Positions 8,254 to 31,678 of a DNA stretch of 55,728 bases are shown here, piece by piece. The DNA lies in the IMG/VR virus record IMGVR_UViG_3300036861_000270, positions 1 to 55,728 of that record, one strand, 5' to 3'. The stretch comes from a virus. Taxonomy: Duplodnaviria; Caudoviricetes. The notes under the pieces were generated by a model. That model ran no database searches. It saw only the letters and a program-made list of their open reading frames with translations, and was not told the origin of the DNA. The position numbers were made by a program, and so were the translations under genes. Every line of letters begins with the position of its first letter. The first letter of the stretch is position 1.

Positions 8254-8331
8254 CTATGTGATAATGGTGAGGCCGGGAGAGTCACCTCCCGGCCTCGGGC
8301 CACCACCCTGACAAGGAGGGCAACGGCCATG
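8254..8331 (+). promoter_or_regulatory. HNH-leader variant: -10 box plus two hairpins
   Basis: GATAAT; GAGGCCGGGAG/CTCCCGGCCTC stem; GGCC..CCCT/AGGG..GGCC stem overlapping the RBS. Confidence 0.6.
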
Positions 8332-9051
8332 AAGGAGCGTACCTGTTCGGTCTCCTGGTGCGACCGGAAGCACCACGCGAACGGTCTCTGCCGTACCCAC
8401 AACGAACGGCGGAGGAAAGGACTCGACCTCGACACTCCGTTCCGCCAGTACGAACACGGCGAGCGACTCTGCAAGGTCGAGGGATGCGGGCGTCCTCGGA
8501 CGCCCGCACGAGACCCCGACGCGAAGACATGGACATCCGGATCAGCTGGCTACTGCCCGATGCATCTGACGCGTGTCGCGCGAAACGGCTCTGCAGGGGA
8601 CGCCGCTCCCCTGAGAAAGCCAAAGGCGCGGACTGCCGGCCTCCCTCGGCTGGAGCGGGCACCAAATGGTTCTCCGCAGTGGAACAAACCCGAATACAAA
8701 CGCGAGTATCGGCTGCAACTCGACTACGGCATGTCCCATGACGACCTTTTGGCGATGCTTACAGCGCAGGAGAACCTGTGTGCGATCTGCGGACGCGCCC
8801 TAGCTCGGGAAGCGGACCCCCGGAAGAAGCGTGAGTTCGCCATCGACCACGACGCGGTGACGGGCAAGGTCAGAGGGCTTCTCTGCCATGGGTGCAACAA
8901 GGGGATCGGGTTCTTCAAAGACGATCCTTGTCTGCTCGCCAGGGCGATCGTCTACCTAGCAACCACCTCGGGTGATCCCTGCCTTCGCGGCTATATGGGG
9001 CAACCGAGGCCTGTCGCATGGGAAACGTTAGTCCAGGCGATGCGTCGCTAA
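8329..9051 (+). CDS. endonuclease VII-like homing endonuclease
   Basis: Two 'C...C.R......LC..H' repeats; 'QENLCAICG...IDHD..TGKVRGLLCHGCN.GIG.FKDD'. Confidence 0.9.
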   Translation: MKERTCSVSWCDRKHHANGLCRTHNERRRKGLDLDTPFRQYEHGERLCKVEGCGRPRTPARDPDAKTWTSGSAGYCPMHLTRVARNGSAGDAAPLRKPKARTAGLPRLERAPNGSPQWNKPEYKREYRLQLDYGMSHDDLLAMLTAQENLCAICGRALAREADPRKKREFAIDHDAVTGKVRGLLCHGCNKGIGFFKDDPCLLARAIVYLATTSGDPCLRGYMGQPRPVAWETLVQAMRR

Positions 9052-9143
9052 CGCCTTAGCTTCAACCCCACCTATCCCAACAACGGCCGTCGGGCCGGCC
9101 CGGTCTCCCATGTCCGGGTCGGCCCGACTACATGGGAGGCCCT

Positions 9144-9719
9144 ATGCATCCACTGACCGTCGCTCGTGCCGCCATCCAGGAGCATGCCGCGCTCCAGAAG
9201 GAGGCGGAGCTCGCCAGCCTGCTCGCCGTCCTCGCCGAACTTGAGCCGAAAGTGATCGTGGAGATCGGCTGCGATGCCGGCGGGACGTTGTGGGCGTGGC
9301 GGCAGCTTGGGCCGCGTCGGTTGCTTGGGGTGGAGCTGCCGCGGGCGGGGTTCCATTCCGGGAAGCCGTTGGAGCGTCACGGCGCCGAGGTGATCATCGG
9401 CGACAGCCACCAGCAGGACACCCACGACCAGCTTGTGAAGCTGCTGGACGGGGAGCAGGTGGACTTCCTGTTCATCGACGCGGACCACACCTACGACGGT
9501 GTGAAACGCGATTTCGAGCTGTACTCGCCGCTGGTCCGTCCGGGTGGGGTGATCGCCCTGCACGACATCTGCAACCACCCGAGGATGCCGGAGGTGCAGG
9601 TGGGTCGGTTCTGGCTGCGGCTCCGTGAGGGGCAGGAGACGGAGGAGTTCATCACCGACCCGCCGACGTGGGGTGGCATCGGCGCGCTGTGCTACCAGCC
9701 CGCGGAGGTGCCGGCCTGA
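9144..9719 (+). CDS. class I SAM-dependent methyltransferase (Methyltransf_24-like)
   Basis: 'IVEIGCDAGGT', 'DFLFIDADHTY', 'VRPGGVIALHD'. Confidence 0.88.
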   Translation: MHPLTVARAAIQEHAALQKEAELASLLAVLAELEPKVIVEIGCDAGGTLWAWRQLGPRRLLGVELPRAGFHSGKPLERHGAEVIIGDSHQQDTHDQLVKLLDGEQVDFLFIDADHTYDGVKRDFELYSPLVRPGGVIALHDICNHPRMPEVQVGRFWLRLREGQETEEFITDPPTWGGIGALCYQPAEVPA

Positions 9720-10762
9720 TGCGGACCCTGGTCATCGGCGGGATCGCGCACGCCCCAGACGGCAGCGGCTACTACCGGTTTTTCCTGCCGTTCAAGCATC
9801 TGGGTGCCAACTCCCACCACATCGCCGGGATGGCCCCTCCCGGCCCGCAGCCGCCGATCACCCCTGAGGATGTCGGCCAGCTCGACGTGTTGGCGCTGCA
9901 GCGTCCCGCCGGGCGGCAGGGGACGCGGCAGCTGGAGCGGATCGTCGGGAAGGTGAAGCTGGTGTACGAGATCGACGACGACATGCTCCAGGCCGAGCCG
10001 TCGGGGTTGCCGCACCTGTACGACGAGCAGACCCGCGCGTCGATCCGGCGGTGTCTGCGGCTGGTCGACCTGGTCACCGCGTCCACGCCGTACTTGGCGG
10101 AGCAGGTCCGTCCCTACAATCCGAACGTGGTCGTGCTCCCCAACTGCATCAAGGCTGGGCTGCTGGACATGCAGCGGCCCCGGCGGGACCGGCTGACGGT
10201 CGGGTGGGCCGGCGGGACGAGCCATCTGGTGGACATGGTGACGGTCGCCGACCCGCTCCGCACGGTGCTCGAGCGGCACCCGCAGGTGGAGATGCACTGG
10301 ATGGGGTTCGACTTCTCCCCGCTGGTGCAGCGGACCTGCCGGTGGACCCCGTGGCAGGCCGACGTTGGCGATTACTACAAGCAAATCGACTTCGACATCG
10401 CGATCGCCCCCTCAGCGGACGTGCCGTTCAACCGCAGCAAAAGCGCGATCCGTGCGCTGGAGATGGGCGCGCTCGGCATCCCGATCGTCGCGGCCAACCA
10501 CCTGCCCTACTCGGACTATGTGATCGACGGGAAGACCGGCTATCTCGTCGACGGGCCCGACGAGTTCCAGGCACGGCTGACCGAGCTCATCAACGACCCT
10601 GATGCGCGGGCAGAGTTGGGCGCGGCGGCGAAGGAGCAGGCGGCGACCTGGACGATCCAGGAGCACTGGCGACTGTGGGAACGCGCATACGAAAGCGTCA
10701 TGGGTGAGGAGGCCACTGGTGGCACGCAGGGTGAAGATGGAGCTGACCCAGCCGGTCAGTGA
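9719..10762 (+). CDS. glycosyltransferase (GT-B, GT4-like)
   Basis: 'YEIDDD', 'VGWAGG', 'DIAIAP...FN.SKS....EMGALGIPIVA', 'DGKTGYLV'. Confidence 0.88.
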   Translation: MRTLVIGGIAHAPDGSGYYRFFLPFKHLGANSHHIAGMAPPGPQPPITPEDVGQLDVLALQRPAGRQGTRQLERIVGKVKLVYEIDDDMLQAEPSGLPHLYDEQTRASIRRCLRLVDLVTASTPYLAEQVRPYNPNVVVLPNCIKAGLLDMQRPRRDRLTVGWAGGTSHLVDMVTVADPLRTVLERHPQVEMHWMGFDFSPLVQRTCRWTPWQADVGDYYKQIDFDIAIAPSADVPFNRSKSAIRALEMGALGIPIVAANHLPYSDYVIDGKTGYLVDGPDEFQARLTELINDPDARAELGAAAKEQAATWTIQEHWRLWERAYESVMGEEATGGTQGEDGADPAGQ

Positions 10763-11045
10763 GCCGGACGGGACCGTGGTCTGGCAGCCCGGCGCCCAGT
10801 TCGACCAGGACGACCCGGCCCTGGACGATCTGCCGCCCGGGCATGTCCGTCCCGTCGTCGTGGAGATCGACGAGCCGCCGGCAGCGGCAGCGGCAGCGGC
10901 TGCGTCAGGCCCGACCGAGGTGCCGGCCTCGGAGCTCGAGCGTCTCCGGGGCCAGGCTGAGCGGCTCGGCGTCAAGGTGGATGGTCGCTGGTCAGCAAGC
11001 AGGCTTCAGCAGGAGATTGCCCAACACGAAGGGAGCAGTACATGA
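10719..11045 (+). CDS. small protein with C-terminal helix-extension-helix-like motif
   Basis: GAGGAGG RBS before GTG; 'LR.QAERLGVKVDGRWS..RL..EI'. Confidence 0.65.
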   Translation: MARRVKMELTQPVSEPDGTVVWQPGAQFDQDDPALDDLPPGHVRPVVVEIDEPPAAAAAAAASGPTEVPASELERLRGQAERLGVKVDGRWSASRLQQEIAQHEGSST

Positions 11046-11470
11046 GCAAGGGAAAGCGGATCATCGTCGCGCTGGCCACGGCCGCCGCGCTCACCGTCGG
11101 TGCCGCTGGCACCGCGCTGGCCGGCTCGCCCCACTTCGTCGACGACCAGCTCACCGCCACCCGCACCGGTGACACCCTCACCGTCAGCGGGAAGGAAGCC
11201 GGGCTGGGTTCTGAGGAGAGCGTGCATGTCGTGGTGGAGGCGAAGGCCGCCTGCCTCAACCCCGGTGAGAACTTCCCGCAGGCCGCCAACAAGGAATCCT
11301 TCTCCGCTGCGGGTGACTTCCCCGTGACCAACGGCAAGGCGTACTTCGAGGTGACGGTGGTGTTCACGTTCCAGCCGAAGTGCGTCCCGCCGATGCGGTT
11401 GGTGATCGGCGACGTGACGGTCACCGATACCAGCAACGGGATCTCCACCACGATCCCCGGCGAGTTCTGA
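11042..11470 (+). CDS. secreted protein
   Basis: Signal peptide: basic N-terminus, hydrophobic core, ALA cleavage site; two Cys. Confidence 0.75.
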   Translation: MSKGKRIIVALATAAALTVGAAGTALAGSPHFVDDQLTATRTGDTLTVSGKEAGLGSEESVHVVVEAKAACLNPGENFPQAANKESFSAAGDFPVTNGKAYFEVTVVFTFQPKCVPPMRLVIGDVTVTDTSNGISTTIPGEF

Positions 11471-11479
11471 AAAGGCCCG

Positions 11480-11567
11480 CTGACCTGCTAAAATAGCAAG
11501 AGAAGCGGCCCGGCGGCGCTTGCGACGCCCCGGGCCATGGCCAACACCTTCAGAGAGGTGCGGCATG
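11480..11567 (+). promoter_or_regulatory. HNH-leader motif copy
   Basis: CTGACCTG-TAAAAT-AAGCGGCCCGG.../CCGGGCC-ATGGCCAACACCT.../AGGTG-ATG. Confidence 0.7.
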
Positions 11568-12359
11568 CTCGATGTTAACCGCGCTGGCTACGCAGCCGCG
11601 CACCGGCTCATCGCTGCTGGGCTGTGGATCGTTGACGCTGAGGCAGGCACGGTCACGGGCAGCAGATATGGCAAGCAGCTAGGCCGCACCAAGCCGGTGG
11701 GTTACTACGTCAGAATCTACGTCAGAGAGAACGGGGCCAGGGTCGGCAACATCTCTGCCCACCGGCTGATCTGGGAGCACGTCAATGGCCCGATCCCTGA
11801 TGGCTTAGAGATCAACCATCGCAACGCCATCAAGAATGACAATCGGCTAGCGAACCTGGAACTTGTGACCCCAGGCGATAACAACAGGCATGCGTTCGCC
11901 CTTGGATTAATGACTCTCCAAGGCGAGCACAACAACAATGCCAAGCTCACCAAACAGGATATCCACGATATCCGCCAGGCCCTGGCTGATGGCGAGATGG
12001 GCGTGACTCTTGCTCATCGATATGGCGTGACCAAGGGGGCCATCAGCCTGATTCGTTCCGGGAGGCTCTGGTCGCATCTCGACGACCCTGCCAGGCACAT
12101 TCTAGACAAAGGAGCACATATGCCCAAGGGTTCTGCGTGGCAGTGGATCGTCGACGTCACCGACCAGTCCGGTACGCATCCGGAGAAGATCATCGGCTCC
12201 TGCAACGGCACGTTCGCCAGCGCCACCTACTACAAGGACGACGGGTACGGGAACCTGATCGTCCCGGACGGCAGCTTCATGGCCGACCCGTCCAGGGTGG
12301 CGTGTGAGGAGCAGGCGGTCGAGGCGTGGGCGATCGCCAACTACCCCAACCGCACCTAG
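11565..12359 (+). CDS. HNH endonuclease (HNH_3-like plus HTH), read in frame into a downstream 79-aa ORF
   Basis: 'AHRLIWE...GPIP.GLEINH.N..K.DNRLANLELVT...N..H', 'NAKLT..DI..IR'; internal AAAGGAG RBS and ATG at 12120. Confidence 0.85.
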   Translation: MLDVNRAGYAAAHRLIAAGLWIVDAEAGTVTGSRYGKQLGRTKPVGYYVRIYVRENGARVGNISAHRLIWEHVNGPIPDGLEINHRNAIKNDNRLANLELVTPGDNNRHAFALGLMTLQGEHNNNAKLTKQDIHDIRQALADGEMGVTLAHRYGVTKGAISLIRSGRLWSHLDDPARHILDKGAHMPKGSAWQWIVDVTDQSGTHPEKIIGSCNGTFASATYYKDDGYGNLIVPDGSFMADPSRVACEEQAVEAWAIANYPNRT

Positions 12360-12368
12360 GAGTTGCGG

Positions 12369-13046
12369 GTGGCGCTGTCTGAGGCCAGCATCCTCCAGAA
12401 GAACCAGGGATCGTTCGAGGCGGCCAGTGGTATAGCGACGCTGCCTTCGGGCACGACCGATGGCAGCACGGTCCTGATCATCGCCTGGGCGAACGGACTT
12501 GCTGGTCAGTTGCAGATTCCAGCCGGGTTCGAGCAGGATATCGTCCCGATTGGTCTGGGCAGCTCGGATCTTTATGCCTGGCGTCGCAAGGGCGTGCCGG
12601 CTAATGAGTCGTCATGGACGGTGCAAACTATTGGCGAGACGGGCCTCATTCTATGGTTTGCCTACGAGATCAATGGCGTTGATTTCACGGAGCCGCTGGA
12701 CCAGTGGCAGACCCACGGCGCAACCGGGGTCACGTCCATCTCGACCGGCACGACCCCACAGACGAGCGTCAGCGACATTGCGTGTTTCGCGGTACATGGG
12801 GCGTTTAGTCTGACCACAATCTCTGGGCAGACCAACGGCTTTGTGGAGGGCGAGGAGCTGTCGCAGTCGAGCGTCACGTATGGCGATGCGACGGTGGCGA
12901 TCTCCCGGCTGTATCCCGGGGCGGCCGGACAGTACGAGTGCACCGCGACGCTGGGTGCGGCAGCCACGGCGCTGGGCACGATGCTGGTCTACCGCGCCGT
13001 CGGGGAGCTGCCGGTGGACCCTGGCGGTGAGGTCCTGACGGGATGA
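12369..13046 (+). CDS. putative virion structural protein (beta-rich)
   Basis: Thr/Gly/Ser-rich, lies in the structural operon; 'P.GF' motif resembles the 14215 and 25776 proteins. Confidence 0.6.
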   Translation: MALSEASILQKNQGSFEAASGIATLPSGTTDGSTVLIIAWANGLAGQLQIPAGFEQDIVPIGLGSSDLYAWRRKGVPANESSWTVQTIGETGLILWFAYEINGVDFTEPLDQWQTHGATGVTSISTGTTPQTSVSDIACFAVHGAFSLTTISGQTNGFVEGEELSQSSVTYGDATVAISRLYPGAAGQYECTATLGAAATALGTMLVYRAVGELPVDPGGEVLTG

Positions 13047-13050
13047 GCCG

Positions 13051-13749
13051 ATGAGTAACCTCTACCTCACCAACACTGACATGTCCGGGGTGACCCCCTC
13101 GGGGACGGAGACAACCCGCCACAAGCTGAATGGGTCAGCAGGGGCCGCCTCAACGGCGCGGAACAAGAACTGCGCGGCGGCACCGCCGCTGAAGATCACC
13201 GATAGTGCCGCCGCCGGGACCGACGGGTCAAGCATCGCCTGGTACTCCGAGCAGCTTCAGGCCGTGACGATCGCCGGGCAGATCGTCGCGTCGCTGTGGG
13301 GCCGGGAGTCGGCCACTACCGCAAACGCCGCGCCGAGTATCGGCGTGTACCGCTGCGACCAGTTCGGCGCCGAGCTCGCCACGATCGCCGACCCGGCCGG
13401 CGCCCAGGGCGGCCTGGAGTTCGCGACCACCGCCGGTGGCGCGACCAAAACCTGCACGATCACCGCGGCAAACGTGGTCGACACCGCTATCGCGGCCGGT
13501 GAACGGCTGAAGGTCGCGCTCTTCATCGACAACGCGGTCGACCAGGGCGGCTCGGGAACGATGGGCACCACGCAGAACTGCCAGTTCTGGGTGAACGGCC
13601 CCAACGGCGCGGCGGGACAGTCCCAGATCGCGTTCACCGAGACGATCCTGTCGCTGGTGCCGGTCATCTCCGGGGCGATCAAACCAGCCATTGCGGGGCG
13701 GCCGACGAACCCAGGCCGCGAGGCCCCGTCGATCCTTTCAGGAGGCTAA
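13051..13749 (+). CDS. putative virion structural protein
   Basis: Ala/Thr/Gly-rich, operon context. Confidence 0.6.
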   Translation: MSNLYLTNTDMSGVTPSGTETTRHKLNGSAGAASTARNKNCAAAPPLKITDSAAAGTDGSSIAWYSEQLQAVTIAGQIVASLWGRESATTANAAPSIGVYRCDQFGAELATIADPAGAQGGLEFATTAGGATKTCTITAANVVDTAIAAGERLKVALFIDNAVDQGGSGTMGTTQNCQFWVNGPNGAAGQSQIAFTETILSLVPVISGAIKPAIAGRPTNPGREAPSILSGG

Positions 13750-13753
13750 TGCC

Positions 13754-14197
13754 GTGGCCCGTGCAGCATCCGCCTATCGCGCTACCGGCCCCGGAACGGC
13801 AACGTTGCCCCTTGCCAGCCTGTACTCGCTGGGAACTGGCGGGATATGGCTGGTCGAGGTCGGCATCACCAATGTCAGCGCCCTTGCGTTCGAGGTCACC
13901 CTACAACGGGTCAGCACGACTGGCACCCAAGGCGCAGCCAAGACAGTCGTGTACGAGGAGCACGACACCAACTTCACCGCCAAAGCCGACGCTCGCGATA
14001 CCCACACCGTCTTGCCGACCCTGGTGGCCGGCGAGATCCGCCGCGCGTCCATCGGCGCGTCGATCGGGTCGGGCATCATCTGGACGTTCGGTGGCCGTGG
14101 CCTGTTCCTCCCCTCCGGGACCGGCAACGGGTTCGCGTTGCTGCCGATCAATGGCACCGGCCAGAGCGCCGACGTGTATTGGTCGTTTGATCAGTGA
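13754..14197 (+). CDS. putative virion structural protein
   Basis: AGGAGG RBS before GTG; beta-rich. Confidence 0.6.
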   Translation: MARAASAYRATGPGTATLPLASLYSLGTGGIWLVEVGITNVSALAFEVTLQRVSTTGTQGAAKTVVYEEHDTNFTAKADARDTHTVLPTLVAGEIRRASIGASIGSGIIWTFGGRGLFLPSGTGNGFALLPINGTGQSADVYWSFDQ

Positions 14198-14214
14198 CCC
14201 TCGGGGGGTAGCTC

Positions 14215-15891
14215 ATGCCACCTCGCCGGGGATATCTCAAGCCCCCAGCCCGGATCATCCGCCGCGGGTCGCGGATCCTCCGCCCGCTCGTCACCGGCGC
14301 AGTCTCCCCGATCACCAAGGTCGGCACCGACGGCACCACCGCCGCGACCGTGCAGGACACCACCCCAACCACCGCATGGCCCTCGGGGATCACCGACGGG
14401 GACCTGGTCGTCCTCGAGGTCACCTACGGGTCCGGCGCCACCCCGACCACCATCTCGCAGGCCAGCGGCGCGACGATGACGCTGGCAAGCGACCTGTCCG
14501 ACACGTCCATCCGGACCGCCACCTACACCCGCTTCTTCGTCACCGGCGACACCGCCCCCACGTTCACCCTGTCCACCGCCCGCTCATGGGCGACCAAGAC
14601 AACAGCGTTCCGTGGGGTCGACACTGTTCACCGGTTCGGCCCGAACGACAACGACTTTCAGCAGACCGCCCAGGCGTCGTCCACCAGCTACGCGTCCGGG
14701 TCGCTCACCCCCGACGAGGACCTGGCGATGGCGGTCCTGGTCTGGGGCGGGAAGATCGCCGCAGGCGGGACGCAGACGATCACGGTCGCGTCCGGGTGGA
14801 CCGACACCGGCGCGATCAACCAGTGCAACATCGCGGCGACCACCAACGTCTGGTGCGACATCCAGTACCAGGCGCTCGGCACGGCGGCCGCGACCAGCGA
14901 GTCAGTGACGATCGGGACCGCCGCGGTCGGACAGGGCACGATCCTCGCGCTGAACCCGGCCCCGGCCGGTGGCGCTCTATCTCGCACCGCCGCTGATACC
15001 GCCTCGGCCACGGACACTGCCACCAGATCAGTTGCCGAGGCTCGTACTGCAGCCGATACCGCCAGCGCCTCGGACAGCGCGCCACGTATCGCCAGCTTCG
15101 CCCGTTCCGCCTCGGATACCGCCAGCGCGACCGACACGGCGGTCGGGGTCGGCGGTGGGAATAGCCGGACCGCCTCGGATGCTGCCTCAGCAACTGACAC
15201 AGCATCGCGGACGCTAGGGCTGGCCACCCGCACGACTGCGGACACGGCCAGCGCTTTGGACACGGTCACCCGGACCGCACCGAAGACCCGCACGACCGCT
15301 GACACGGCGTCGGCCAGCGACACGGCAACGCGGACGTGGGCGGCAGCCAGGACCGCCACGGAGACGGCAAGCGCCACCGACGCGGGCGCCCGGCTCGTCG
15401 CGTTCGCACGGTCGGCCTCCGATACCGCAACGGCAGCGGACGCCGCCACCCGGACGGCACCGCGCATCCGCACCGCATCCGACACGGCCAGCGCGACGGA
15501 CACGGCGGCTGGGTCGACGTCGGGGAACCTGCAACGCACCGCCACCGACACCACCCAAGCGACCGACACGGCGACACGCTCGGCGATCACCTGGGCACGG
15601 TCGACCGCCGACACCGCCCAGGCGGTTGACGCGGCCACCCGGACCGCACCACGCACCCGAATCGTCAGCGACACCGCCGCAGCCGCCGATGTAGCGGTCG
15701 GAGTCGTCAACCACTCGTTCACCCGCACCGCCGCCGACACCGCCAACGCAGCAGACACGGCATCGGGGACGGTCGTGGCGTTCACCGTCGGCCAGCTCAC
15801 CGCCACCTTGGCCGCCCTGACCACGCTTACCGCTGCCGACGCGCCGACCGCGACCCTGACCGCGACGGCCACACGGGGCGGCCCCACCTAA
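14215..15891 (+). CDS. putative fibre/appendage protein with tandem repeats
   Basis: Globular N-terminal domain then 13 repeats of 20-22 aa, R[TS]xxD[TA]AxAxD. Confidence 0.7.
   Translation: MPPRRGYLKPPARIIRRGSRILRPLVTGAVSPITKVGTDGTTAATVQDTTPTTAWPSGITDGDLVVLEVTYGSGATPTTISQASGATMTLASDLSDTSIRTATYTRFFVTGDTAPTFTLSTARSWATKTTAFRGVDTVHRFGPNDNDFQQTAQASSTSYASGSLTPDEDLAMAVLVWGGKIAAGGTQTITVASGWTDTGAINQCNIAATTNVWCDIQYQALGTAAATSESVTIGTAAVGQGTILALNPAPAGGALSRTAADTASATDTATRSVAEARTAADTASASDSAPRIASFARSASDTASATDTAVGVGGGNSRTASDAASATDTASRTLGLATRTTADTASALDTVTRTAPKTRTTADTASASDTATRTWAAARTATETASATDAGARLVAFARSASDTATAADAATRTAPRIRTASDTASATDTAAGSTSGNLQRTATDTTQATDTATRSAITWARSTADTAQAVDAATRTAPRTRIVSDTAAAADVAVGVVNHSFTRTAADTANAADTASGTVVAFTVGQLTATLAALTTLTAADAPTATLTATATRGGPT
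14980..15770 (+). repeat. 13 degenerate coding tandem repeats of ~60-66 bp
   Basis: RTAADTASATDTAT-like units counted in the translation. Confidence 0.85.
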
Positions 15892-15918
15892 CCACTGGAT
15901 CTAGGATCTGGAGGCTCG

Positions 15919-16227
15919 ATGCTCGTCCAACTCGGCAACTCCGCGCCGAAGGAGGCGTACCGGGACGAGGACGGGAACCTGCGGCACCGGCCCGTCGAGG
16001 GCGCCCGGGTGACCACCATCCACATCCCGGACAGCTACACCCCGATCGAGGCGTTCTCCGCGGTCACCGCGCAGGACGGGGCGTGGAACCACCACACCCA
16101 GGGCGATGACCCCGCCGATGTCAACCCCGACTGGCTGGAGTGCGATGACGACACTCTCCGGCTGCTGTTGGAATCGTACTTCGGCTGCAAGGTCGGCCGG
16201 CCGAGCAACTGGAAGGGGCAGGGCTGA
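15919..16227 (+). CDS. hypothetical protein
   Basis: GGAGG RBS; coupled to the next gene. Confidence 0.7.
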   Translation: MLVQLGNSAPKEAYRDEDGNLRHRPVEGARVTTIHIPDSYTPIEAFSAVTAQDGAWNHHTQGDDPADVNPDWLECDDDTLRLLLESYFGCKVGRPSNWKGQG

Positions 16228-16862
16228 TGCTCGTCAACACTGGGCGCGACCACCAGGCCGGCTCGATCGGCGGCGATATCGTCGGCTTCGCCGGTACCGC
16301 GACCGCCTCCTCCGCGACCTCGCTGACCACCTCCGGGCTCACGTCCGGGATCTACGTCGGGCACATCGTGGTCGCCGGCTCCACAGCGGCGAACTTCGTC
16401 TACGGGATCATCATCTCCAACACCACCACCAACATCACCGTCGACGCCTGGTCGGTCCCGGCCACCCCTGGCGGTGCCGCTGGAGCGACCCCAGCGGCGA
16501 CCGCGCCATTCATCATCCTTCCCGGCCAAGCGCCCGCCTGGTTCACTGGGCTGACCGCCAACACTGGCGCCGCAGCCGGCACCGACACGGTGCTGACGGG
16601 TGAGATCACCACCGCTGGGGGTGGGCTGATCCGCAAGATCAGCGCCTACGCACACACGGCGGGCGTGGCGAGCTACACCCTCACCACCGCCTACACCGCC
16701 AACGGGTCCGACACGTTGCCGGTCACCATCCACAAGATCGGCGTGTTCCAGTCGCTGACCGGCGCGACGCGGATGGCGTTCGAGACGGTACTGAACGCCG
16801 ACGCGACACTGAACATCTCCGGCGACCAGCTGACCGTGACGCAGACCGTCACGCTCTCGTAG
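16227..16862 (+). CDS. putative virion structural protein
   Basis: 'DTVLTGEI...GL.R', C-terminal 'SGDQLTVTQTVTL', fibre/baseplate-like. Confidence 0.65.
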   Translation: MLVNTGRDHQAGSIGGDIVGFAGTATASSATSLTTSGLTSGIYVGHIVVAGSTAANFVYGIIISNTTTNITVDAWSVPATPGGAAGATPAATAPFIILPGQAPAWFTGLTANTGAAAGTDTVLTGEITTAGGGLIRKISAYAHTAGVASYTLTTAYTANGSDTLPVTIHKIGVFQSLTGATRMAFETVLNADATLNISGDQLTVTQTVTLS

Positions 16863-16870
16863 GGGCAGCG

Positions 16871-17713
16871 ATGCCGCGCTACCCGCAGGGCCAGCCGATT
16901 ACCCTGTCGACCACGGTCAAGAACGCCGCTGGCCAGCTTGGCAACGCGACCGCGATCGCCCTCACGGTGCAGAAGCCTGACGCCTCCACCCAGACCTACT
17001 CCTCGCCGACCAACGACGGGACCGGCCTGTACCACCAGGACATCCCCACCACCGATCTGACCCTGGTCGGCCACTACGCGTACAAGTGGGTCGCGACCGG
17101 TACGAACGCAGGCGTTGCCTACGACGTATTCGATGTGTTCGACCCGTTCGATGTCAGTGTCCTGTCGCTTCGGGATGGCAAGGATCATCTGAACATCCCG
17201 CAGACGAACACCACCTACGACTCGGAGATCCAGTCGAAGATCGCCACCATCCAGGCCAACCTCGAGAAGTTGACCGGCGGCCCGATTATCACCCGCAGCA
17301 TCACCGAGCGGGCCCCGTGCCCGTACGGGCACAACACCATCGCTGTCCGGCAACGGCCGCTCGTCGGTGTCACCTCGATCACCGATGTCGCCAGCGGGGT
17401 CGCGCAGTCGACCAGCGACCTCGAGATCGACTCGAACGCGGGGATCATCCGCCGGAAGCTCGGCTGGCCGTTCCTCGGCTGGGGTGGCGCCTACACCGTC
17501 GTCTACACAGCCGGATGGGGCACCGCCGTGCCCCCGTCATTCAACGAGTTCGCCAGGATCGTCCTCGAACACCTGTGGCAGACCCAGCATGGCCCGTCGC
17601 TCCGCCCGAGCATCGGTGGGGAGGAGGAGGTCACGTTGCCCGGGTTCGGCTATGCGATCCCCAACCGGGCGGTCGAACTCATCGCCTGGGCCATGCTCGA
17701 GGCGTACGTATGA
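16871..17713 (+). CDS. head-tail connector (gp6-like) fused to N-terminal beta domain
   Basis: 'LSL..GK.HLNI......DSEI', 'VVYTAGWG', 'ILEHLW'; extra ~90 aa at the N-terminus. Confidence 0.75.
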   Translation: MPRYPQGQPITLSTTVKNAAGQLGNATAIALTVQKPDASTQTYSSPTNDGTGLYHQDIPTTDLTLVGHYAYKWVATGTNAGVAYDVFDVFDPFDVSVLSLRDGKDHLNIPQTNTTYDSEIQSKIATIQANLEKLTGGPIITRSITERAPCPYGHNTIAVRQRPLVGVTSITDVASGVAQSTSDLEIDSNAGIIRRKLGWPFLGWGGAYTVVYTAGWGTAVPPSFNEFARIVLEHLWQTQHGPSLRPSIGGEEEVTLPGFGYAIPNRAVELIAWAMLEAYV

Positions 17714-17768
17714 GTGCCATGCCTGCCGAGCCGTGCCATGCCGAGCCTAACCCTGCCGTGCCACGCCC

Positions 17769-18251
17769 ATGAGCACATCCAGAGTACCGGACGTTCTTGA
17801 CTACTTGGTGAGCCTGTTCTCGGGTGATGTGACGCTCGGCACAGCGCCAGCCCCCAACACCGTTGCGGTGTACGACGGACCCCGGATCACCCAGGAGCCC
17901 TCCCAGCGGAACCTGTACGTCGGTCTGACCGACCCTGACTCGGACGAGCCGGTCTCCGCGAACTCGGAGCAGACGTGGGCGGCGCTCGGCAAGCAGGCCG
18001 TCGACGAAACCCTCACCATCCACTGCTGCGCCGAAGCATGGTCCGGTGAGACAGACGTGCGGACGCTGCGGCTGGAAGCCTACGGGATCGTCCACGCGGT
18101 CGAGACGCTGATCCGCGCCGACCCGATGCTCGGTGGCCTGGTGCTGTTCTGCGAACCCGTCAGCGGCGGGGCGGAGCTGCGGCAGGACCAGACCGCCCAG
18201 GGGGTGCTCGTGAAGGTCCTGTTCCGCATCGACGCCAAAGCACGCCTCTAG
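17769..18251 (+). CDS. tail terminator/completion protein (putative)
   Basis: 'VETLIRADPMLGG'; position before the tail tube gene. Confidence 0.6.
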   Translation: MSTSRVPDVLDYLVSLFSGDVTLGTAPAPNTVAVYDGPRITQEPSQRNLYVGLTDPDSDEPVSANSEQTWAALGKQAVDETLTIHCCAEAWSGETDVRTLRLEAYGIVHAVETLIRADPMLGGLVLFCEPVSGGAELRQDQTAQGVLVKVLFRIDAKARL

Positions 18252-18259
18252 GAGGACAG

Positions 18260-18424: not shown

Positions 18425-18427
18425 CAG

Positions 18428-19579: not shown

Positions 19580-19584
19580 TCCTT

Positions 19585-21368: not shown

Positions 21369-21389
21369 TGGCCAAGAGAGAGCTGAACG

Positions 21390-22421: not shown

Positions 22422-22460
22422 GCCTACAAGTCTAGCTCAAGGAAAGGGGGTGGTCTTCAG

Positions 22461-25086: not shown

Positions 25087-25095
25087 GAGCCGTCC

Positions 25096-25779: not shown

Positions 25780-28118
25780 GCCTCAACTCTCTGTTGGTCC
25801 CCAATGTCGGCTGCCTGTTCGGGGTGTGGCCGTCCACCTCGTGTAATGCGGCGACCAGTCTCGCGACCCGGGTCCGCGACCATGAGTCGCTGATCAACCG
25901 GACCTCGGCCACCAACGGTGTCCTCAACATCGTTCACGCCTACCACGATTGGAATGACTACGCGACCACGTTCCCGACCGCCGACGAGCAGACACTGGCT
26001 AGCGAGGGCCGGCTGCTGCTGATCCACTGGACCCCGCGGATCTACGGGACCTCGACGCAGTACAGCTGGGCCAATATCGCTGCGGGGGCCTACGACAACT
26101 CGATCGTGATCCCCCAGGCACGGCTGATGCGTGACTGGGGCACCAGTTTCTTCCTGGCGTTCCACAGCGAGATGAACTCCGGCTCGACGGCGCAGGGTGG
26201 CACCTACGGCACCGACGCTGACTACGCCGCCGCAGCGCAGCACCTCCACGACGTGTTCGTCGCCCAGGGCGCCACCAACGTGGTCTGGGTGTTCAACCCG
26301 TCCGGGTACACCACCACGGTCCCGACCCGGATAAACGCGCTGTACCCGGGGGACGCCTACGTCGACTGGATCAGTTTCGACCCGTACGGGAGCGCCTCGA
26401 CCAGCGAGGACCTCGACTACGTCCTGGGCACCAAGTACCCGATGATCAACTGGGCCACCGTCACCAAGAGCGGCAGCCACACCAAGCCGATCATGCTGGC
26501 CGAGTGGGGGAAGACCGAGACCGGCGGAGCCTATCCGAACACCAAGCAAGGCTTCTTCGACCAGGTCCGCACGACCCTTCAGGCCAGCTACCCGCAGATC
26601 AAGGCGATCGTCTACTTCGACGGCGTCTCCGGGGTCAGCCAGTGCCTGAACACCTCCACCAATGCCCTGAAGGGGTACCAGGATCTGGCTAAGGCGGACT
26701 ACTTCAACCCGGACCTGAGCCCGACCGGCCCACCGATCAGCACGGGCTCGTTCCGGTCCAGCGTCGCCGCCACGTTCTCCAACACCAAGTCCAAAGCGAT
26801 CACGATCCCTGTCGATGTGCAGGCCGGCGACGGGATGCTGCTGTGGCACACCTGCACCCGCGCGGAGCTCCGGCAGGCCGCTGAGGGCACCAACGCCACC
26901 AACGTCACCGTTGCCAACTCCGGCGCCAAGGGTTCCAACCCGCTGGATGGGGTGTCGGCGACCCCACCGACCTATGACACGACCCAGAAGCACTCGGGCG
27001 CCTCCTCGTGGCTTGCGGGTCTGGCCGCGCAGACAACCCGTGCTGGCTGGTGGGAGGCCAGCTTCGGGACGCAGGTCTCCGGGGTGCCGTACTGGGGGGA
27101 GAAGTACTTCCGGATCCCGTCGGTGCCACCAGCCGCGATCCGGCTGTTCCAGCAGGCCGGCGTCGCCGGCTCCCCAGCGTTCCAGTGGGGCCTGGCAATC
27201 GACGTGACCACCGGGAAGCTGGTCATCCGCGACGGTGGGGGCACCAACCGGGCAACGTCGACTGCCGCGCCCGCGGTGAACACCCAGCATCGTGTCGAAT
27301 GGCAGTGCGACTGGAACGGGTCGACCACCACCGTCATCGCGCGGCTGTTCCTCGGCACCAACGTGGACGGCACCACCCCGGATGAGACGCTGACCTCCAC
27401 GCCGTTCACGCAGGCCGCCGCGGGGGGCCGCTACTACTTCGGTGCGCTGTCCTCCACCGCGCAGACATGGGCGCCATGGGTGGACGACTTCCGGCTTTCA
27501 AAGAACGGCTGGATCGGCCCGCAAGGGACCTCCCCGGCCCTCACCGCCCCGACCGGATGGACGTTCGTTGACTCCCGGCAGATCACCGACGGGCCCGTCG
27601 AGCTCATCAGCCGGCTGTACCGCCGGACCGCGCAGGCCGGTGACCCTGGCTCCGCGATCACGCTGACCACCGACGTGCTCGCGCATGGGTCGATCGACCT
27701 GGTCGCCTACTCCGGCGTTGACCAGCTTGCCGTGGTTGATGTGTCGGCGACCCCATCCACGAAGACGACTGACTCAACCACGGTCGTCACTCCTACGACG
27801 CCGACCACCACCGGCACTGCCGACATCATCGTCTCGGCGGCGTTCACCCGCGACAACCCGGGCGGCCTCACCAGCTCCTGGACGCTACCCGGCGGGGAAG
27901 TGCAACGTGCGGTGGCGTTCCCCTCCGGCACCGCTGACGGCAGGGTCGCCGGAATCGTCACCGACGATGCCGTCACCCATGGCGTCGGAACGTACGGGGC
28001 GAAAACGTTCACCTCCAACGCCACCAGTTACTTGGGCATTGGATGGACGATCGCACTCCTGTCGACGGCGGCGGTATCCAGCGGCCAGTCGTTCGGAATG
28101 ATGCAGACGCACAACTAG
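25776..28118 (+). CDS. tail protein with GH26-like glycoside hydrolase domain
   Basis: 'SEMN' (acid/base), 'VVWVFNP', 'YPGDAYVDWISFDPY', 'KPIMLAEWG' (nucleophile); GTGA overlap. Confidence 0.8.
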   Translation: MSLNSLLVPNVGCLFGVWPSTSCNAATSLATRVRDHESLINRTSATNGVLNIVHAYHDWNDYATTFPTADEQTLASEGRLLLIHWTPRIYGTSTQYSWANIAAGAYDNSIVIPQARLMRDWGTSFFLAFHSEMNSGSTAQGGTYGTDADYAAAAQHLHDVFVAQGATNVVWVFNPSGYTTTVPTRINALYPGDAYVDWISFDPYGSASTSEDLDYVLGTKYPMINWATVTKSGSHTKPIMLAEWGKTETGGAYPNTKQGFFDQVRTTLQASYPQIKAIVYFDGVSGVSQCLNTSTNALKGYQDLAKADYFNPDLSPTGPPISTGSFRSSVAATFSNTKSKAITIPVDVQAGDGMLLWHTCTRAELRQAAEGTNATNVTVANSGAKGSNPLDGVSATPPTYDTTQKHSGASSWLAGLAAQTTRAGWWEASFGTQVSGVPYWGEKYFRIPSVPPAAIRLFQQAGVAGSPAFQWGLAIDVTTGKLVIRDGGGTNRATSTAAPAVNTQHRVEWQCDWNGSTTTVIARLFLGTNVDGTTPDETLTSTPFTQAAAGGRYYFGALSSTAQTWAPWVDDFRLSKNGWIGPQGTSPALTAPTGWTFVDSRQITDGPVELISRLYRRTAQAGDPGSAITLTTDVLAHGSIDLVAYSGVDQLAVVDVSATPSTKTTDSTTVVTPTTPTTTGTADIIVSAAFTRDNPGGLTSSWTLPGGEVQRAVAFPSGTADGRVAGIVTDDAVTHGVGTYGAKTFTSNATSYLGIGWTIALLSTAAVSSGQSFGMMQTHN

Positions 28119-28654
28119 GAGAGGAGACGTTTACGGGCGCGCCTCTCACGAGCGAGTTGTCGATCGCAGGCACGGCAGCAACGTTCGCCACGGCGAGTGA
28201 TTCGCGTATTGCGCTCGTCGAATGGATGGCCGCGTAGGCAGTGCGTCATCCGCGCCCGTTGCGCACTCAATGAGCCACTACGCAGGACGTTCTCTTGCTG
28301 CGTGACCGGCTCTAGGTGAGCGGGGTTCACGCAGGATGTGACCCCGCAGAGATGGTCGATCACAAGTCCGATAGGAATCGGACCGACCATCCGCTCATAG
28401 GCGTAGCGGTGGACGAGCATGCGATGTCCTCGCTCTGGATAGCACATGCCATAGCCAGCACGGTTACGGTTGCCAGTCCAAAGCCAGCATGTCTCGGTCT
28501 TCTCAACCTTGGCCCAGAAGCGCTGTTCAGGGGTGGGCAGCTTCGTTGTCCCGAGTCGCTTCCATCGGCCGTAGTGCATCACGCACAGGCCGTGCCCGCA
28601 GTGACGGGTGACTGGCTGGTTGCAGTCATCGACTGAACAGATACGCTCTGGCAC
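28115..28654 (-). CDS. HNH endonuclease (HNH_3-like)
   Basis: 'RFWAKVEKT..CWLWTG...GYG', 'IDHLC....CVNP.HLEPVT..EN', 'THC.RGHPF'. Confidence 0.9.
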   Translation of the reverse strand: MPERICSVDDCNQPVTRHCGHGLCVMHYGRWKRLGTTKLPTPEQRFWAKVEKTETCWLWTGNRNRAGYGMCYPERGHRMLVHRYAYERMVGPIPIGLVIDHLCGVTSCVNPAHLEPVTQQENVLRSGSLSAQRARMTHCLRGHPFDERNTRITRRGERCCRACDRQLARERRARKRLLS

Positions 28655-28743
28655 GTCGGTCCCTCCCGGGGGATCGGCCAGCCCCGGGCGGTCCACATCC
28701 GCGCCGGGGCACTTCATTGCCTGATTCTACTGTGCAGGTGAGA
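28652..28743 (-). promoter_or_regulatory. HNH-leader motif copy (minus strand)
   Basis: CTCACCTG-TAGAAT-AAGTGCCCCGG.../CCGGGGC-TGGCCGATCCC.../GGGACCGAC-GTG. Confidence 0.7.
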
Positions 28744-28748
28744 CGGAC

Positions 28749-30053
28749 TTGCCGGACGTATATAGCGATGTATATCGAGACCTCTACGGCACCCTCGGCC
28801 CCCAGATCGGCGCGATCTACTCCCTCGACGGGATCAACGCGCCCCAGGTGATCGTCGAGGTCGCGTTCGGCGGGACCACCACCGTCGACCCCGCTGGCGG
28901 CTACTTCGTCCTCGACTCCTCGGCGCTTGGGACGGGGCAGCTCGGCGCGGTCGGGTTCGTCGATGTCACCGCCGACGTGCAGCGGGTCAGCTTCCAGCGT
29001 GGCCAGGCCGGCGAGTTGGAAGCCGCCTCCCCGGGTACCTGCCAGGTGTTCCTCGACAACACTGCTGGGACCTACGACCCGCTCAACCCCTCCAGCCCTT
29101 GGTACGGGCAGCTCGATGTCGGGGTGGCAGTGTGGGTCAAAGCGGTCTGGCAACAGGTCACCTATCCGCTGTTCCGCGGGTTCACCGACTCCATCAGCGT
29201 CGACGCCGGGTTCGATCCCACCGTCACCCTGGCATGCACCGACGGGCTGGAGGTGCTCGCACGGGCGGTGCTGCGGTCCGGGTTCCCCTACCCGGACGGG
29301 GAGACCACCGGCGCCCGGATCAACCGGATCCTCGACGGTGCCGCGTGGCCAACCACCCTCCGCAAGATCGACACGGGCCTGTCCACCTGCCAGCAGACCG
29401 TCCTGGCGGACGCCGGCTCGGCGTTGCAGATGGTCAACGACGCGGTTGCCACCGAGCTCGGCTTCCTCGCCGTCGACGGGAACGGCGCGGTGGTGTTCTA
29501 CGACCGCCTCCACCCCTACCTCGCGCACCGGTCCCAGACCGTCCGCGCGACCATCTCCGACGTCGGCACCGACGTGGACATGCTCGAGGTGACCGTCTCC
29601 AAGCAACGCGACACGATCGCCAACCGGGCGCTCATCACCCGCAACGGCGGCATCGAACAGCAAGCCGACGACACCACCTCCCAGGCCGCCTACGGGATCC
29701 GGACGTTCTCAGGGACTGCGGGCCCGCTGCTGCGGGTCGACTCCGACGCGCTGTCGCTCGGGAACTGGATCGTTGGCCGGTCCAAAACCCCGAACGTGCG
29801 GGTCAGCCACGTCACCATCCACTCGGAAACCCAGGGGATGTGGACGACCCTGCTTGGCCTCACCTACCTTGACCGGATTCGGGTGGTCCGCGACTACGGC
29901 CCCAACACGCTGGATGTGCAGGTCATCATCCAGTCGCTCAACCACGACATTACCCAGGACTACTGGGAGATTGGTTTCGACACCCGCAACGTCGACAACT
30001 TCAAGCCGTTTGTTTTGAACAGCTCGAAGCTCAACACCGGGACGCTGGCCTAG
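28749..30053 (+). CDS. minor tail/baseplate hub protein
   Basis: 'DVTADVQ.VS..RG', 'LDN..G.YDP.NP.SP.Y', 'LFRGF', 'GARINRILD'. Confidence 0.78.
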   Translation: MPDVYSDVYRDLYGTLGPQIGAIYSLDGINAPQVIVEVAFGGTTTVDPAGGYFVLDSSALGTGQLGAVGFVDVTADVQRVSFQRGQAGELEAASPGTCQVFLDNTAGTYDPLNPSSPWYGQLDVGVAVWVKAVWQQVTYPLFRGFTDSISVDAGFDPTVTLACTDGLEVLARAVLRSGFPYPDGETTGARINRILDGAAWPTTLRKIDTGLSTCQQTVLADAGSALQMVNDAVATELGFLAVDGNGAVVFYDRLHPYLAHRSQTVRATISDVGTDVDMLEVTVSKQRDTIANRALITRNGGIEQQADDTTSQAAYGIRTFSGTAGPLLRVDSDALSLGNWIVGRSKTPNVRVSHVTIHSETQGMWTTLLGLTYLDRIRVVRDYGPNTLDVQVIIQSLNHDITQDYWEIGFDTRNVDNFKPFVLNSSKLNTGTLA

Positions 30054-30066
30054 GAGGACGATCACC

Positions 30067-30390: not shown

Positions 30391-30851
30391 TCCGCGACCG
30401 GCTGCTGGGCGCCGACCATCGGCTCGCCATGGTGGTGCAGCGGCTGGTCCGCCGGCTCGGACTCCGCGGCGCGTTCCTCGGCGCGGTCGGCACCCTCGAC
30501 CTCATCTGGGCCTGGTCGCTGCTTGACCGCGACACCGCGCAACCCCTCTTCGGCGCCGCGTCCTTCCAGGTCATCATCGCCTACGGTGGCAAGCTCCACC
30601 ACGCCCGCCCGCTGCTGCCCTGGGCGCTGCTGCTCGCCACGGTCGGGCTGCTATGCCTGTGGCAGGCGTTCGTAGACGACGACCGGGCCGCGTTCGCCGC
30701 CGCGATCGGGATCAAGGTCCTGTGGGCGCTGCTCACCGTCGCGGCCTGGCCGACCGCCCACTTCCAGGTCCTCCGCGGCACCACGCAATGGGCGACACTG
30801 GCCGTGGCGGTACTGATCTGCGCCGCGGGTCTTCCGTATCGGCAGGACTAA
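30387..30851 (+). CDS. multi-TM membrane protein (lysis cassette)
   Basis: About four hydrophobic helices; ATGA overlap. Confidence 0.7.
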   Translation: MIRDRLLGADHRLAMVVQRLVRRLGLRGAFLGAVGTLDLIWAWSLLDRDTAQPLFGAASFQVIIAYGGKLHHARPLLPWALLLATVGLLCLWQAFVDDDRAAFAAAIGIKVLWALLTVAAWPTAHFQVLRGTTQWATLAVAVLICAAGLPYRQD

Positions 30852-31193
30852 ATGGCGACCTGGCTGGTGGTGCTCCTGCCGACTCTCCCCTCGGGTCTTG
30901 CCGCGGTGCTGGTTTGGCAGGTCAGCACCGCCAACCGCCGGCAGACCGCCGAACAGGCCGCCCGGACGATCGCCCTTGATGAGCGGAAGGCCGACCGGGA
31001 GGAGCTCCAAACGGCGCTTGCGTTCTGGAGGACCAGTTTCGAGGCGGTCTCCCTCGACAACAAGGAGCTCCGCAAGGAACTCGACGTGGAACGGCGGGAT
31101 CACTGGCGGACCAAGCGGCGGGTCGACAAGCTCGAGGACACGCTGCGCCGTCAAGGTCTCGAAATCCCGAACGGTTCCGAGGGCTCGACATGA
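30852..31193 (+). CDS. membrane-anchored coiled-coil protein (lysis cassette)
   Basis: N-terminal TM followed by a charged coiled coil. Confidence 0.7.
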   Translation: MATWLVVLLPTLPSGLAAVLVWQVSTANRRQTAEQAARTIALDERKADREELQTALAFWRTSFEAVSLDNKELRKELDVERRDHWRTKRRVDKLEDTLRRQGLEIPNGSEGST

Positions 31194-31597
31194 GCGTACG
31201 AGGATGGATCCTCAGCGGCGTCGGGATGGTGGCGTTCGTCGCGGCGGCCGTGGTCAGCTCCAGCTTGGCGCCCAAACCTGGGGAGTTCGGCCCGACCACG
31301 ATGCCGCCGTCGACCGTCACGGTGCCGTCATCGGTGCCGGGCAGCCCACCGACCACCTCGGTTCCACCGACGACCGCGCCTCCGTCGGTGTCCGGGCTGC
31401 CCGGCCCACCAGGACCCCCAGGACCCCCCGGGCCGCCGGGAAGTGTCGCGTTCGTGCCACCACCGACGACCGGGCCGCCGCCGGCCACGGCCGCACCCAC
31501 CACGGTCGGGGTGACCAGCACGACGAGATGCCGGACGCCCAAGAGCACGGTGCACCCTTCGAGTACCCTGCACCCCGCATGCCTGCCGTCGCACTGA
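31190..31597 (+). CDS. membrane-anchored Pro/Thr-rich protein with short collagen-like GPP tract
   Basis: N-terminal TM, then GLPGPPGPPGPPG. Confidence 0.65.
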   Translation: MSVRGWILSGVGMVAFVAAAVVSSSLAPKPGEFGPTTMPPSTVTVPSSVPGSPPTTSVPPTTAPPSVSGLPGPPGPPGPPGPPGSVAFVPPPTTGPPPATAAPTTVGVTSTTRCRTPKSTVHPSSTLHPACLPSH

Positions 31598-31678
31598 CCT
31601 GCGATAATGCATCAAGTGGCCCCGCGCGATAGTGGTCGCCGTGGCCGTGGCCGACACCTACAAGGAGGTGCCGACGTG
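31594..31678 (+). promoter_or_regulatory. HNH-leader motif copy
   Basis: CTGACCTG-GATAAT-AAGTGGCCCCG.../CGTGGCC-GTGGCCGACACCT.../AGGTGCCGAC-GTG. Confidence 0.72.

Follow-up and report, generated by a model that had tools for sequence, protein, structure and literature searches.

A mobile, structured leader element upstream of free-standing HNH and endonuclease VII genes in a phage genome

INTRODUCTION

Free-standing nuclease genes of the HNH and endonuclease VII (EndoVII) families in one phage genome share a leader: a promoter-like region, two covarying hairpins and a Shine-Dalgarno (SD) sequence enclosed by the second hairpin. The genome is IMG/VR virus record IMGVR_UViG_3300036861_000270 (Duplodnaviria; Caudoviricetes), analysed here over its whole length of 55,728 bases and called the window. 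It holds five clear copies of the leader, and four of its six nuclease genes have a significant one. We find the element to be genuine: it is structured, moves with its gene and has no earlier description. As to its function, our best explanation is that it is a portable promoter-plus-leader cassette, more an expression cassette than a switch that hides the ribosome-binding site; we give this account an even chance. An earlier note on the same DNA (the original prediction) had proposed a portable RNA module that controls toxic mobile nuclease genes, with the T4-type hairpins that hide this site as its precedent.

Outside the T4 family, little is known about how free-standing homing endonucleases fit into the expression programme of the phage that carries them. 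Here, unrelated nuclease families in one phage lineage carry the same compact, covarying module, which also heads recombination genes. This would point to a common solution, in which the inserted gene brings along its own standard expression signal, timed with recombination.

We read the window as an uncultured soil actinophage. CheckV puts its completeness at 100%, its guanine-plus-cytosine (GC) content is about 65-71% (67% is quoted for comparison below), and a plus-strand module encodes terminase, portal, protease, major head and minor tail proteins. Its DNA is found in soil metagenome runs. For the capsid protein, matches reach at most 40% identity and are confined to phages of Gordonia, Mycobacterium and Rhodococcus (81 records, among them 43 Gordonia, 19 Mycobacterium and 5 Rhodococcus). 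No DNA-level relative turned up when 6-8 kb of the window were compared by megablast and blastn with a cultured-phage collection. The relative used for comparison throughout, G001, is a complete record of 53.7 kb with terminal repeats; its capsid protein is 79% identical to that of the window, and the two genomes are syntenic at 71-96% DNA identity (blastn).

RESULTS

Five clear copies of the leader in the window

The consensus layout is a CT[GC]ACCTG box, a -10-like hexamer, AAG[TC]G, hairpin 1, TGGCC[GA]A, hairpin 2 around the SD, and the start codon. Hairpin 1 consists of a 7-bp GC stem, a bulged C and a 4-bp inner stem. The module spans about 90 bases; the motif itself is 65 nt long.

The copy at 11480-11567(+) has CTGACCTG at 11480-11487, an extended -10 (TGCTAAAAT) at 11486-11494, hairpin 1 at 11507-11536, hairpin 2 with the SD, and an ATG at 11565; its two hairpins fold at -23.0 and -11.4 kcal/mol. 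At 19585-19672(+) the elements are CTGACCTG (19585-19592), TGGTAAAAT, hairpin 1 (19613-19641), hairpin 2 and an ATG at 19670. The copy at 31594-31678(+) comprises CTGACCTG (31594-31601), TGCGATAAT, hairpin 1 (31618-31646) with one C.U mismatch, hairpin 2 and a GTG at 31676. On the minus strand, at 28652-28742, we find CTCACCTG (28742-28735), TAGAAT (28729-28724), hairpin 1 (28710-28681), hairpin 2 and a GTG at 28654. The fifth copy, which we call the native type, lies at 49520-49619(+): CTGACCTG at 49520-49527, an extended -10 (TGCTATGAT) at 49536-49544, hairpin 1 at 49559-49587, hairpin 2 and a GTG at 49617.

Two covariance models were used. R1, for which only the 19585 and 31594 copies served as input, searched the entire window with filters off; R2 is a second, broader model. 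R1 scores its own members at 90.7 and 92.5 bits, respectively, and recovers the two non-training copies that the original prediction had listed with them, 28742(-) at 51.5 bits and 11480 at 46 bits; R2 gives 69.8 and 80.6 bits for the former pair and 69.7 and 70.6 bits for the latter. The native-type copy had been overlooked. R1 matches it at 49555-49619 (24.8 bits, E 1.8e-4) and R2 at 61.9 bits. Over the window, R2 thus places the five clear copies at 61.9-80.6 bits, and its next match reaches 20.4 bits.

A looser copy at 8254-8331(+), also claimed earlier, has the layout but not the sequence. It has an extended -10 (TGTGATAAT) at 8257-8265, a 12-bp hairpin without a bulge at 8268-8297 (z -3.75), a second small stem at the SD and an ATG at 8329. 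The -10 ends 2 nt before the hairpin, compared with 9-14 nt in the other copies. Since it scores near background (R1 9.8 bits, E 1.2; R2 18.4 bits, E 0.17), it is indistinguishable from noise by sequence; it is at best a layout analogue of the leader.

In each of the five clear copies the -10-like hexamer ends 9-14 nt short of hairpin 1, with hairpin 2 more than 45 nt downstream; it can be read by eye in the other listed copies as well. The extended -10 pattern TGNKADRAT occurs five times on the two strands of the window, a count not itself above chance (5.7 expected), and all five matches are at leaders. CTSACCTG occurs 12 times against 5.0 expected. The CTGACCTG box is separated from the -10 by 1 nt in most copies, by 5 nt in the minus-strand copy and by 11 nt in the native-type copies and two metagenome copies. 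Promoter activity, the mRNA 5' end and every functional role discussed below are what we infer from these sequences.

Homologues of the leader

All homologue counts are lower bounds, because the pattern scans of viral, genome and metagenome collections give at least the matches listed. A first pattern returned at least 114 stretches and was too loose; a tighter one was used afterwards. Two pattern scans of the viral collection followed by model filtering left 22 records, and R2 finds 41 matches at E <=0.001 in all 22, which had been chosen because the pattern or model already matched. The leader copy in G001 was missed by R1 and found by R2. In 35 loci of capsid relatives, with up to 10 kb of flank each, R1 scored nothing above 20.7 bits. 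A blastn search of phages with the leader gave only partial hairpin matches, at E 0.07 or worse; the best of these falls between two genes on the minus strand of Mycobacterium phage Knocker and was rejected as unrelated.

Metagenome contigs contributed nine copies, in 8 of the 80 fetched. One copy (36.6 bits) lies next to an HNH gene in an apparent prophage on a contig of Rhizomonospora bruguierae (Micromonosporaceae); it comes from one of 80 loci fetched from at least 120 pattern matches. If this is a prophage, it may be a hint to host range. There (L291:2085-2796(+)) the leader precedes a 217-aa protein that has no Pfam match and, by eye, an HxK-like motif; the small HNH gene is 0.9 kb downstream. 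Two other copies, L201:1796-1865(-) and L206:1719-1781(-), have ATC at the position of the start codon; in one of the two, a GTG in the same frame stands 9 nt before it (by eye).

Pairing is conserved while sequence changes

Of the 46 rows in the final alignment, 45 are distinct. Over these 45 sequences, 94.9% of 752 pair cells hold standard pairs against 74.1% after shuffling, a share that the fixed collection pattern and model-fitted alignment inflate, as they do the frequency of CTGACCTG; none of 500 shuffles reaches the observed value. The covariation score is 0.455, compared with 0.096 for shuffled sequences and 0.045 or less when pairing partners are slid by one to three columns. Compensatory change is seen at 12 of the 17 pairs, and earlier subsets agree. 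In this alignment hairpin 1 is 97.8% paired and hairpin 2 89.7%. Counted alone, hairpin 2 is 89.5% paired against 67.1% shuffled, its covariation is 0.506 against 0.123, and all six of its pairs show compensatory change in the model-fitted alignment.

Hairpin 1 emerges without any model. MAFFT followed by RNAalifold on 36 sequences recovers it with nine pairs, six of them compensatory. The inner three pairs, which were left free in the search pattern, appear as G:C, C:G, A:U and U:A. Three other pairs never vary among the 45 sequences; a fourth is G:U in one of its 44 scored cells and G:C in the remaining 43. The bulge is C in 31 of 36. The two hairpins differ in stability: hairpin 1 has a mean energy of -22.0 kcal/mol (z -3.4, with 34 of 36 below -2), the hairpin 2 region one of -9.3 kcal/mol (z -0.9, with 2 of 36 below -2). 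No T-run follows hairpin 1; (N)YGGCC(G/A)AC stands there instead. A terminator scan of 8000-21000 called none at the leaders.

The leader moves with its gene

Four stretches of the window, leader included, are absent by blastn from otherwise syntenic sites in G001: 8222-9070, 11471-12073, 19576-20534 and 31602-32147. Each starts at or right after the stop codon of the upstream gene and holds a leader and a nuclease gene; the leaders sit 10-25 nt past that stop. Because cassettes and leaders are jointly missing, the leader belongs to the mobile unit. Insert boundaries after stop codons, together with the lack of an Rfam match, rule out insertion as a group I intron or intein. At the site of 28118-28749, G001 carries a different small minus-strand open reading frame (ORF). 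At the 31594 site it reads CTAACCTG, so the box CTGACCTG of that copy is partly native.

The native-type copy behaves differently. Its box, -10 and hairpin 1 (49515-49596) are 96% identical in G001, and the two sequences diverge from hairpin 2 on. In G001 this leader precedes an exonuclease gene (phrog_466, E 1.4e-80). In the window it precedes a 67-aa Cys/His-rich ORF without Pfam or PHROG match (49617-49820(+)) and then a 252-aa ORF with a TTG start (49804-50562(+)) that has weak PHROG matches to Holliday-junction resolvase and endonuclease families. In a third phage, G010, it precedes a 22-aa ORF and then another gene, whose N-terminus we take to be replisome-organiser-like. The same module thus heads the replication/recombination region of three phages.

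Hairpins and ORFs are also shuffled relative to one another. Over 630 leader pairs, similarity in hairpin 1 is uncorrelated with similarity in hairpin 2 (rho 0.02), and leader similarity follows protein similarity weakly (rho 0.17). Between the copies at 19585 and 31594 both hairpins are 86% alike, although the proteins behind them are unrelated. Hairpin 2 of the 19585 copy is found again, at 97% identity, in L205, there with a different hairpin 1 and an unrelated ORF. Near-identical hairpins are found on unrelated ORFs, and three records (G008, G013 and G015) carry tandem leader-ORF arrays.

Genes downstream of the leader

That the downstream nucleases come from different families, as claimed earlier, is confirmed by their domains. 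The EndoVII family gene at 8329-9051(+) (240 aa) stands behind the loose copy, within the absent stretch 8222-9070. HNH_3 genes follow the leaders at 11565-12359(+), 31676-32137(+) (153 aa) and 28115-28654(-) (179 aa), the first of these continuing in frame into the next gene (ATG 12120). The HNH (PF01844) gene at 19670-20344(+) shares its insert with a 65-aa Cys-rich ORF at 20344-20541(+). The earlier inventory of five nuclease genes was right as far as it went; the domain inventory of the record adds a sixth His-Me nuclease, a 159-aa EndoVII gene at 4995-5474(-), with no hairpins in its upstream region. A TGATACAAT box ends 5 nt before the ATG of this gene, an arrangement that would fit a leaderless transcript.

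Among the ORFs behind the 45 distinct leaders, 24 have a Pfam HNH_3, HNH or EndoVII match (E <=0.001), six have an HNH-annotated PHROG match only, and two are weak or truncated HNH-like. The nucleases are free-standing HNH_3, HNH or EndoVII proteins of 146-264 aa. Two further ORFs run off their contigs, and 11 of the 43 that can be assessed are other genes. Seven of these 11 are small ORFs of 22-94 aa; the rest encode an exonuclease, an MT-A70 methyltransferase, a DUF3102 protein and a 217-aa protein without matches. Conversely, 8 of 15 HNH-domain loci in five larger related records have a leader. The association with nucleases is thus a strong enrichment, not a rule, and the original description of a nuclease-gene module stands for enrichment and fails for exclusivity.

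Several features of the cassettes are recorded here as side observations. The HNH_3 frame at 11565 has no stop of its own; the junction with the next gene is near 12074-12125. The gene is 187 aa long in the near-identical record G009, where its stop falls within a duplicate of the last ~12 codons of the upstream gene; the window has a deletion of ~25 nt at this place. The cassette thus brings a replacement 3' end for the gene it split. The 65-aa ORF has two CxxC-like pairs, and its stop overlaps the start of the next phage gene, as the stop of the upstream gene does in G001. It has no similarity to the 67-aa ORF of the native-type copy. A close homologue of the latter, with its own leader, is found on an unrelated metagenome contig (L406:2138-2329(-)), followed by a second leader and a DUF3102 protein. 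The nucleases encoded at 8329, 19670 and 28654(-), and many homologues, begin M-x-(E/K)-R-(T/I)-C-S and continue with Cys/His-rich motifs; this common start indicates an N-terminal module that crosses the EndoVII, HNH and HNH_3 catalytic families. When four soil DNA runs were compared with 8000-21000, short contigs branched or ended at the leaders, which is how repeated sequence should behave. In one run (X1) almost no cover fell on 19718-20585, from which we draw no conclusion. No RNA run was listed as containing 11400-20400.

DISCUSSION

The original prediction spoke of a structured, covarying element, portable from one ORF family to another and belonging to no named RNA family. The pairing statistics, with hairpin 1 found even without a model, bear out the first point; the absence of whole cassettes from G001 and the near lack of relation between leader and protein similarity bear out the second. 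As for the third, Rfam gives no match at the gathering score over the window, and none at E values up to 5 on 19560-19700 and 31570-31700. A search of the full-text literature found no description of an HNH-associated leader of this kind in actinophages.

How might such a leader work? In the portable cassette that we favour, an extended -10 promoter, often with the CTGACCTG box, would open the unit. The 11-bp GC hairpin with its bulged C would lie 2-7 nt from the predicted mRNA 5' end. The conserved YGGCC(G/A)AC linker leads into a weak hairpin, with the SD in the loop or 3' arm, and then into the start codon. In a clade of uncultured soil actinophages the cassette belongs to the unit inserted with each free-standing HNH/EndoVII gene, and in at least three of these phages it also heads the replication/recombination module. 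An inserted nuclease gene would acquire a transcription start of its own and a translation start of standard type. Its product would then be made alongside the recombination genes and would not depend on the late operon at the landing site. Hairpin 1, as a 5'-terminal RNA stem, would stabilise or insulate the transcript, and may attenuate read-through from upstream; hairpin 2 would tune initiation and not block it. Finally, the ~90 bp of common sequence could act as a recombination linker for swaps of ORFs and hairpins, as has been proposed for the promoter-early stem-loop (PeSL) cassettes of T4-type phages.

Several observations weigh against this reading. The pair counts come from alignments fitted to the model, with many mutually related rows, and the search pattern that yielded most sequences prescribed the box, the -10 and nine bases of the 5' arm. 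Hairpin 2 was not recovered by MAFFT and RNAalifold from 36 sequences without the model. G.U pairs fill 2 of the 752 cells. Within hairpin 2 of the 36-sequence set, A.C and C.A mismatches outnumber G.U pairs by 20 to 1, a conserved A.C internal loop adds 17 mismatches, and in 35 of 36 sequences the antisense strand of the region gives the more stable fold (-13.7 kcal/mol, compared with -9.3). With G.U pairs this scarce and the antisense fold better, the wobble criterion leaves both the strand and the molecule, RNA or DNA, unsettled; the A/C-rich 5' arm may be kept weak on purpose, or the pattern may stem from a constraint on the DNA or on the opposite strand. The promoter has its own difficulties. 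A sigma-70 two-hexamer scan of 8000-21000 passes only one leader, the 11480 copy, which has the TG; the -35 region is not conserved; and the difference in box spacing, close to one helical turn, is without explanation. The missing T-run makes a terminator role for hairpin 1 doubtful. Last, the window cassettes are not flanked by a second leader copy, as PeSL cassettes are.

The rival that survives best is the one put forward in the original prediction, translational control of the T4 type: hairpin 2 would sequester the ribosome-binding site, so that a toxic nuclease is made only from a particular form of transcript or at a particular time. Hairpins at this site are documented for I-TevI, I-TevII, I-TevIII, segB and Aeh1 mobE (PMC2988022, in the part of that paper available). 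The SD invariably falls within hairpin 2, either in the loop or in the 3' arm, with 3-6 nt between the hairpin and the start codon, and all six hairpin 2 pairs covary in the model-fitted alignment. In T4, however, as described in the same text, a late promoter lies within the hairpin sequence, late transcripts lack the 5' arm and only the long early and middle transcripts are silenced. With a -10 upstream of both hairpins, every transcript of the leader would contain both arms, and no form would escape inhibition. Moreover, the stem of hairpin 2 is weakened by the conserved A.C mismatches, its stability is hardly more than that of shuffled sequence, and the SD does not seem hidden: its predicted unpaired probability averages 0.44 at the leaders (35 of 36 distinct sequences have an SD-like motif) and 0.35 at 47 other gene starts of the window, which were picked by a simple rule of SD plus third-position GC and may include wrong starts. 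An SD no more occluded than at ordinary genes, behind an upstream promoter, lends no support to T4-style sequestration. We regard it as improbable, though not negligibly so.

Hairpin 1 and its flanks might instead be a protein-binding site, either an RNA operator for a phage-encoded regulator of translation or stability, or a DNA palindrome (at about +7 to +40) for a repressor that co-regulates the nuclease cassettes with the recombination module. The three invariant stem pairs and the nearly invariant fourth would fit such a site, as would the bulge, which is mostly C, and the conserved flanks AAGYG and YGGCC. Only one of ~490 hairpin 1 cells is G.U, and the stem is equally stable on both strands (-22.0 and -22.6 kcal/mol), which is expected if symmetry in double-stranded DNA matters. 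In one copy (L158), hand-counting finds TGGCC three times, at spacings of 33 and 31 nt. Against this, the loop and inner stem change freely, which is typical of selection for pairing and not for a sequence that is read out; no candidate regulator has been identified; and the TGGCC spacing comes from a single copy. We judge a protein-binding site slightly less probable still than sequestration. A bolder version deserves a similarly small share of belief: the leader would be a regulatory handle common to unrelated selfish nuclease genes and the phage recombination module, its bulged hairpin read by one phage or host factor or acting on RNA polymerase, and the near-absence of G.U would mark a requirement at the DNA level or on both strands. 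If so, the homing endonucleases would come on as an entire guild, along with the recombination functions.

A direct action of the hairpins on RNA polymerase, as a put-like cis antiterminator or as an attenuator of upstream read-through, seems quite unlikely to us. The layout invites the idea. Two stem-loops lie directly downstream of the predicted promoter, head a long module in three phages and, in the cassettes, stand just past the upstream stop codon; the leader may resemble HK022 put. Stem-loops of PeSL cassettes also lowered reporter expression as a strong terminator would (PMC2839356, in the accessible part). But hairpin 1 is not followed by a T-run, the terminator scan was empty at the leaders, and hairpin 2, by overlapping the SD and reaching right up to the start codon, points to translation.

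That the leader has no function of its own, its similarity being left from recent duplication or co-conversion within one phage population, is very improbable: many copies do come from a few related sample series, and some hairpins are identical between records, but under unconstrained drift pairing would not have stayed at 95%, with 12 of 17 pairs showing compensatory change, and the element also stands before unrelated ORFs, in other metagenomes (9 matches in 8 of 80 contigs) and in one Micromonosporaceae genome.

On the portable-cassette account, a 65-nt motif absent from Rfam could mark mobile nuclease cassettes in the genomes of uncultured actinophages, and it is possibly a compact expression part for high-GC hosts.

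Comparison with known systems

HEARO, the RNA also known as the omega-RNA of IscB, is a named RNA associated with HNH endonucleases and is a few hundred nt long. Like the leader, it is a structured RNA next to HNH-domain genes. The leader differs in its length of 65 nt, in its ORFs, which are free-standing HNH_3, HNH or EndoVII proteins and not IscB, and in matching nothing in Rfam. A 50-bp motif in Gordonia phage Vardy, whose genome is 51% GC, is a different thing.

The hairpins of T4-family homing endonuclease genes share with the leader their position at the ribosome-binding site of a phage gene of this type. As far as the available part of their description goes (PMC2988022), they are specific to each gene, unlike the common module seen here, and the leader further differs in a promoter that would precede both hairpins, a weak SD hairpin and a predicted SD accessibility that is not reduced. 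The same text describes a very stable hairpin just upstream of a free ribosome-binding site at seg43 of Aeromonas phage 25, and this resembles hairpin 1 of the leader.

Among actinophages, the SAS and ESAS repeats of cluster K mycobacteriophages come to mind, elements whose function is given as unknown and presumed translational (PMC3203893, in the sections available). They and the leader are both conserved, SD-containing sequences at the start codons of a subset of genes. In half of the cases imperfect inverted repeats with a variable spacer lie upstream of the SAS; in ESAS the arms are 17 bp and conserved in sequence, and the accessible text describes neither a promoter box nor a link to HNH cassettes. 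None of the leaders has the 13-nt SAS consensus, whose place is 3-8 nt upstream of the start codon; the window has one match with two mismatches (30645-30657(-)), away from the leaders, against 1.78 expected.

The PeSL cassettes are mobile regulatory elements of the T4-type phages RB49 and phi1, with a promoter, a GC-rich stem-loop and an SD within ~100 bp, beside accessory ORFs; their copies recombine (PMC2839356, in the accessible part, on which the comparison that follows rests). They belong to AT-rich enterobacterial myoviruses, the leader to soil actinophages of 67% GC, and with host and base composition so unrelated homology is not expected. The leader has two hairpins, both downstream of the -10, and lacks a T-run. 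Its clients are mainly HNH/EndoVII genes, those of PeSL ORFans, and the promoter, terminator and mini-circle activities measured for PeSL contrast with a leader known from sequence alone. The likeness in design is nonetheless close. Both are intergenic modules of ~100 bp that join a sigma-70-like promoter (predicted for the leader), a G/C stem-loop, an SD and a start codon, directly after the upstream stop codon and beside accessory genes that vary between close relatives. As PeSL cassettes do, the leader marks insertions and deletions between such relatives, here the four cassettes absent from G001. Recombination between copies would fit the mosaic combinations of hairpins and the tandem arrays, although no recombination product was observed. 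For both, a double role as portable expression signal and recombination linker has been proposed. The closest analogues of the leader are the PeSL cassettes of T4-type phages and the ESAS of cluster K.

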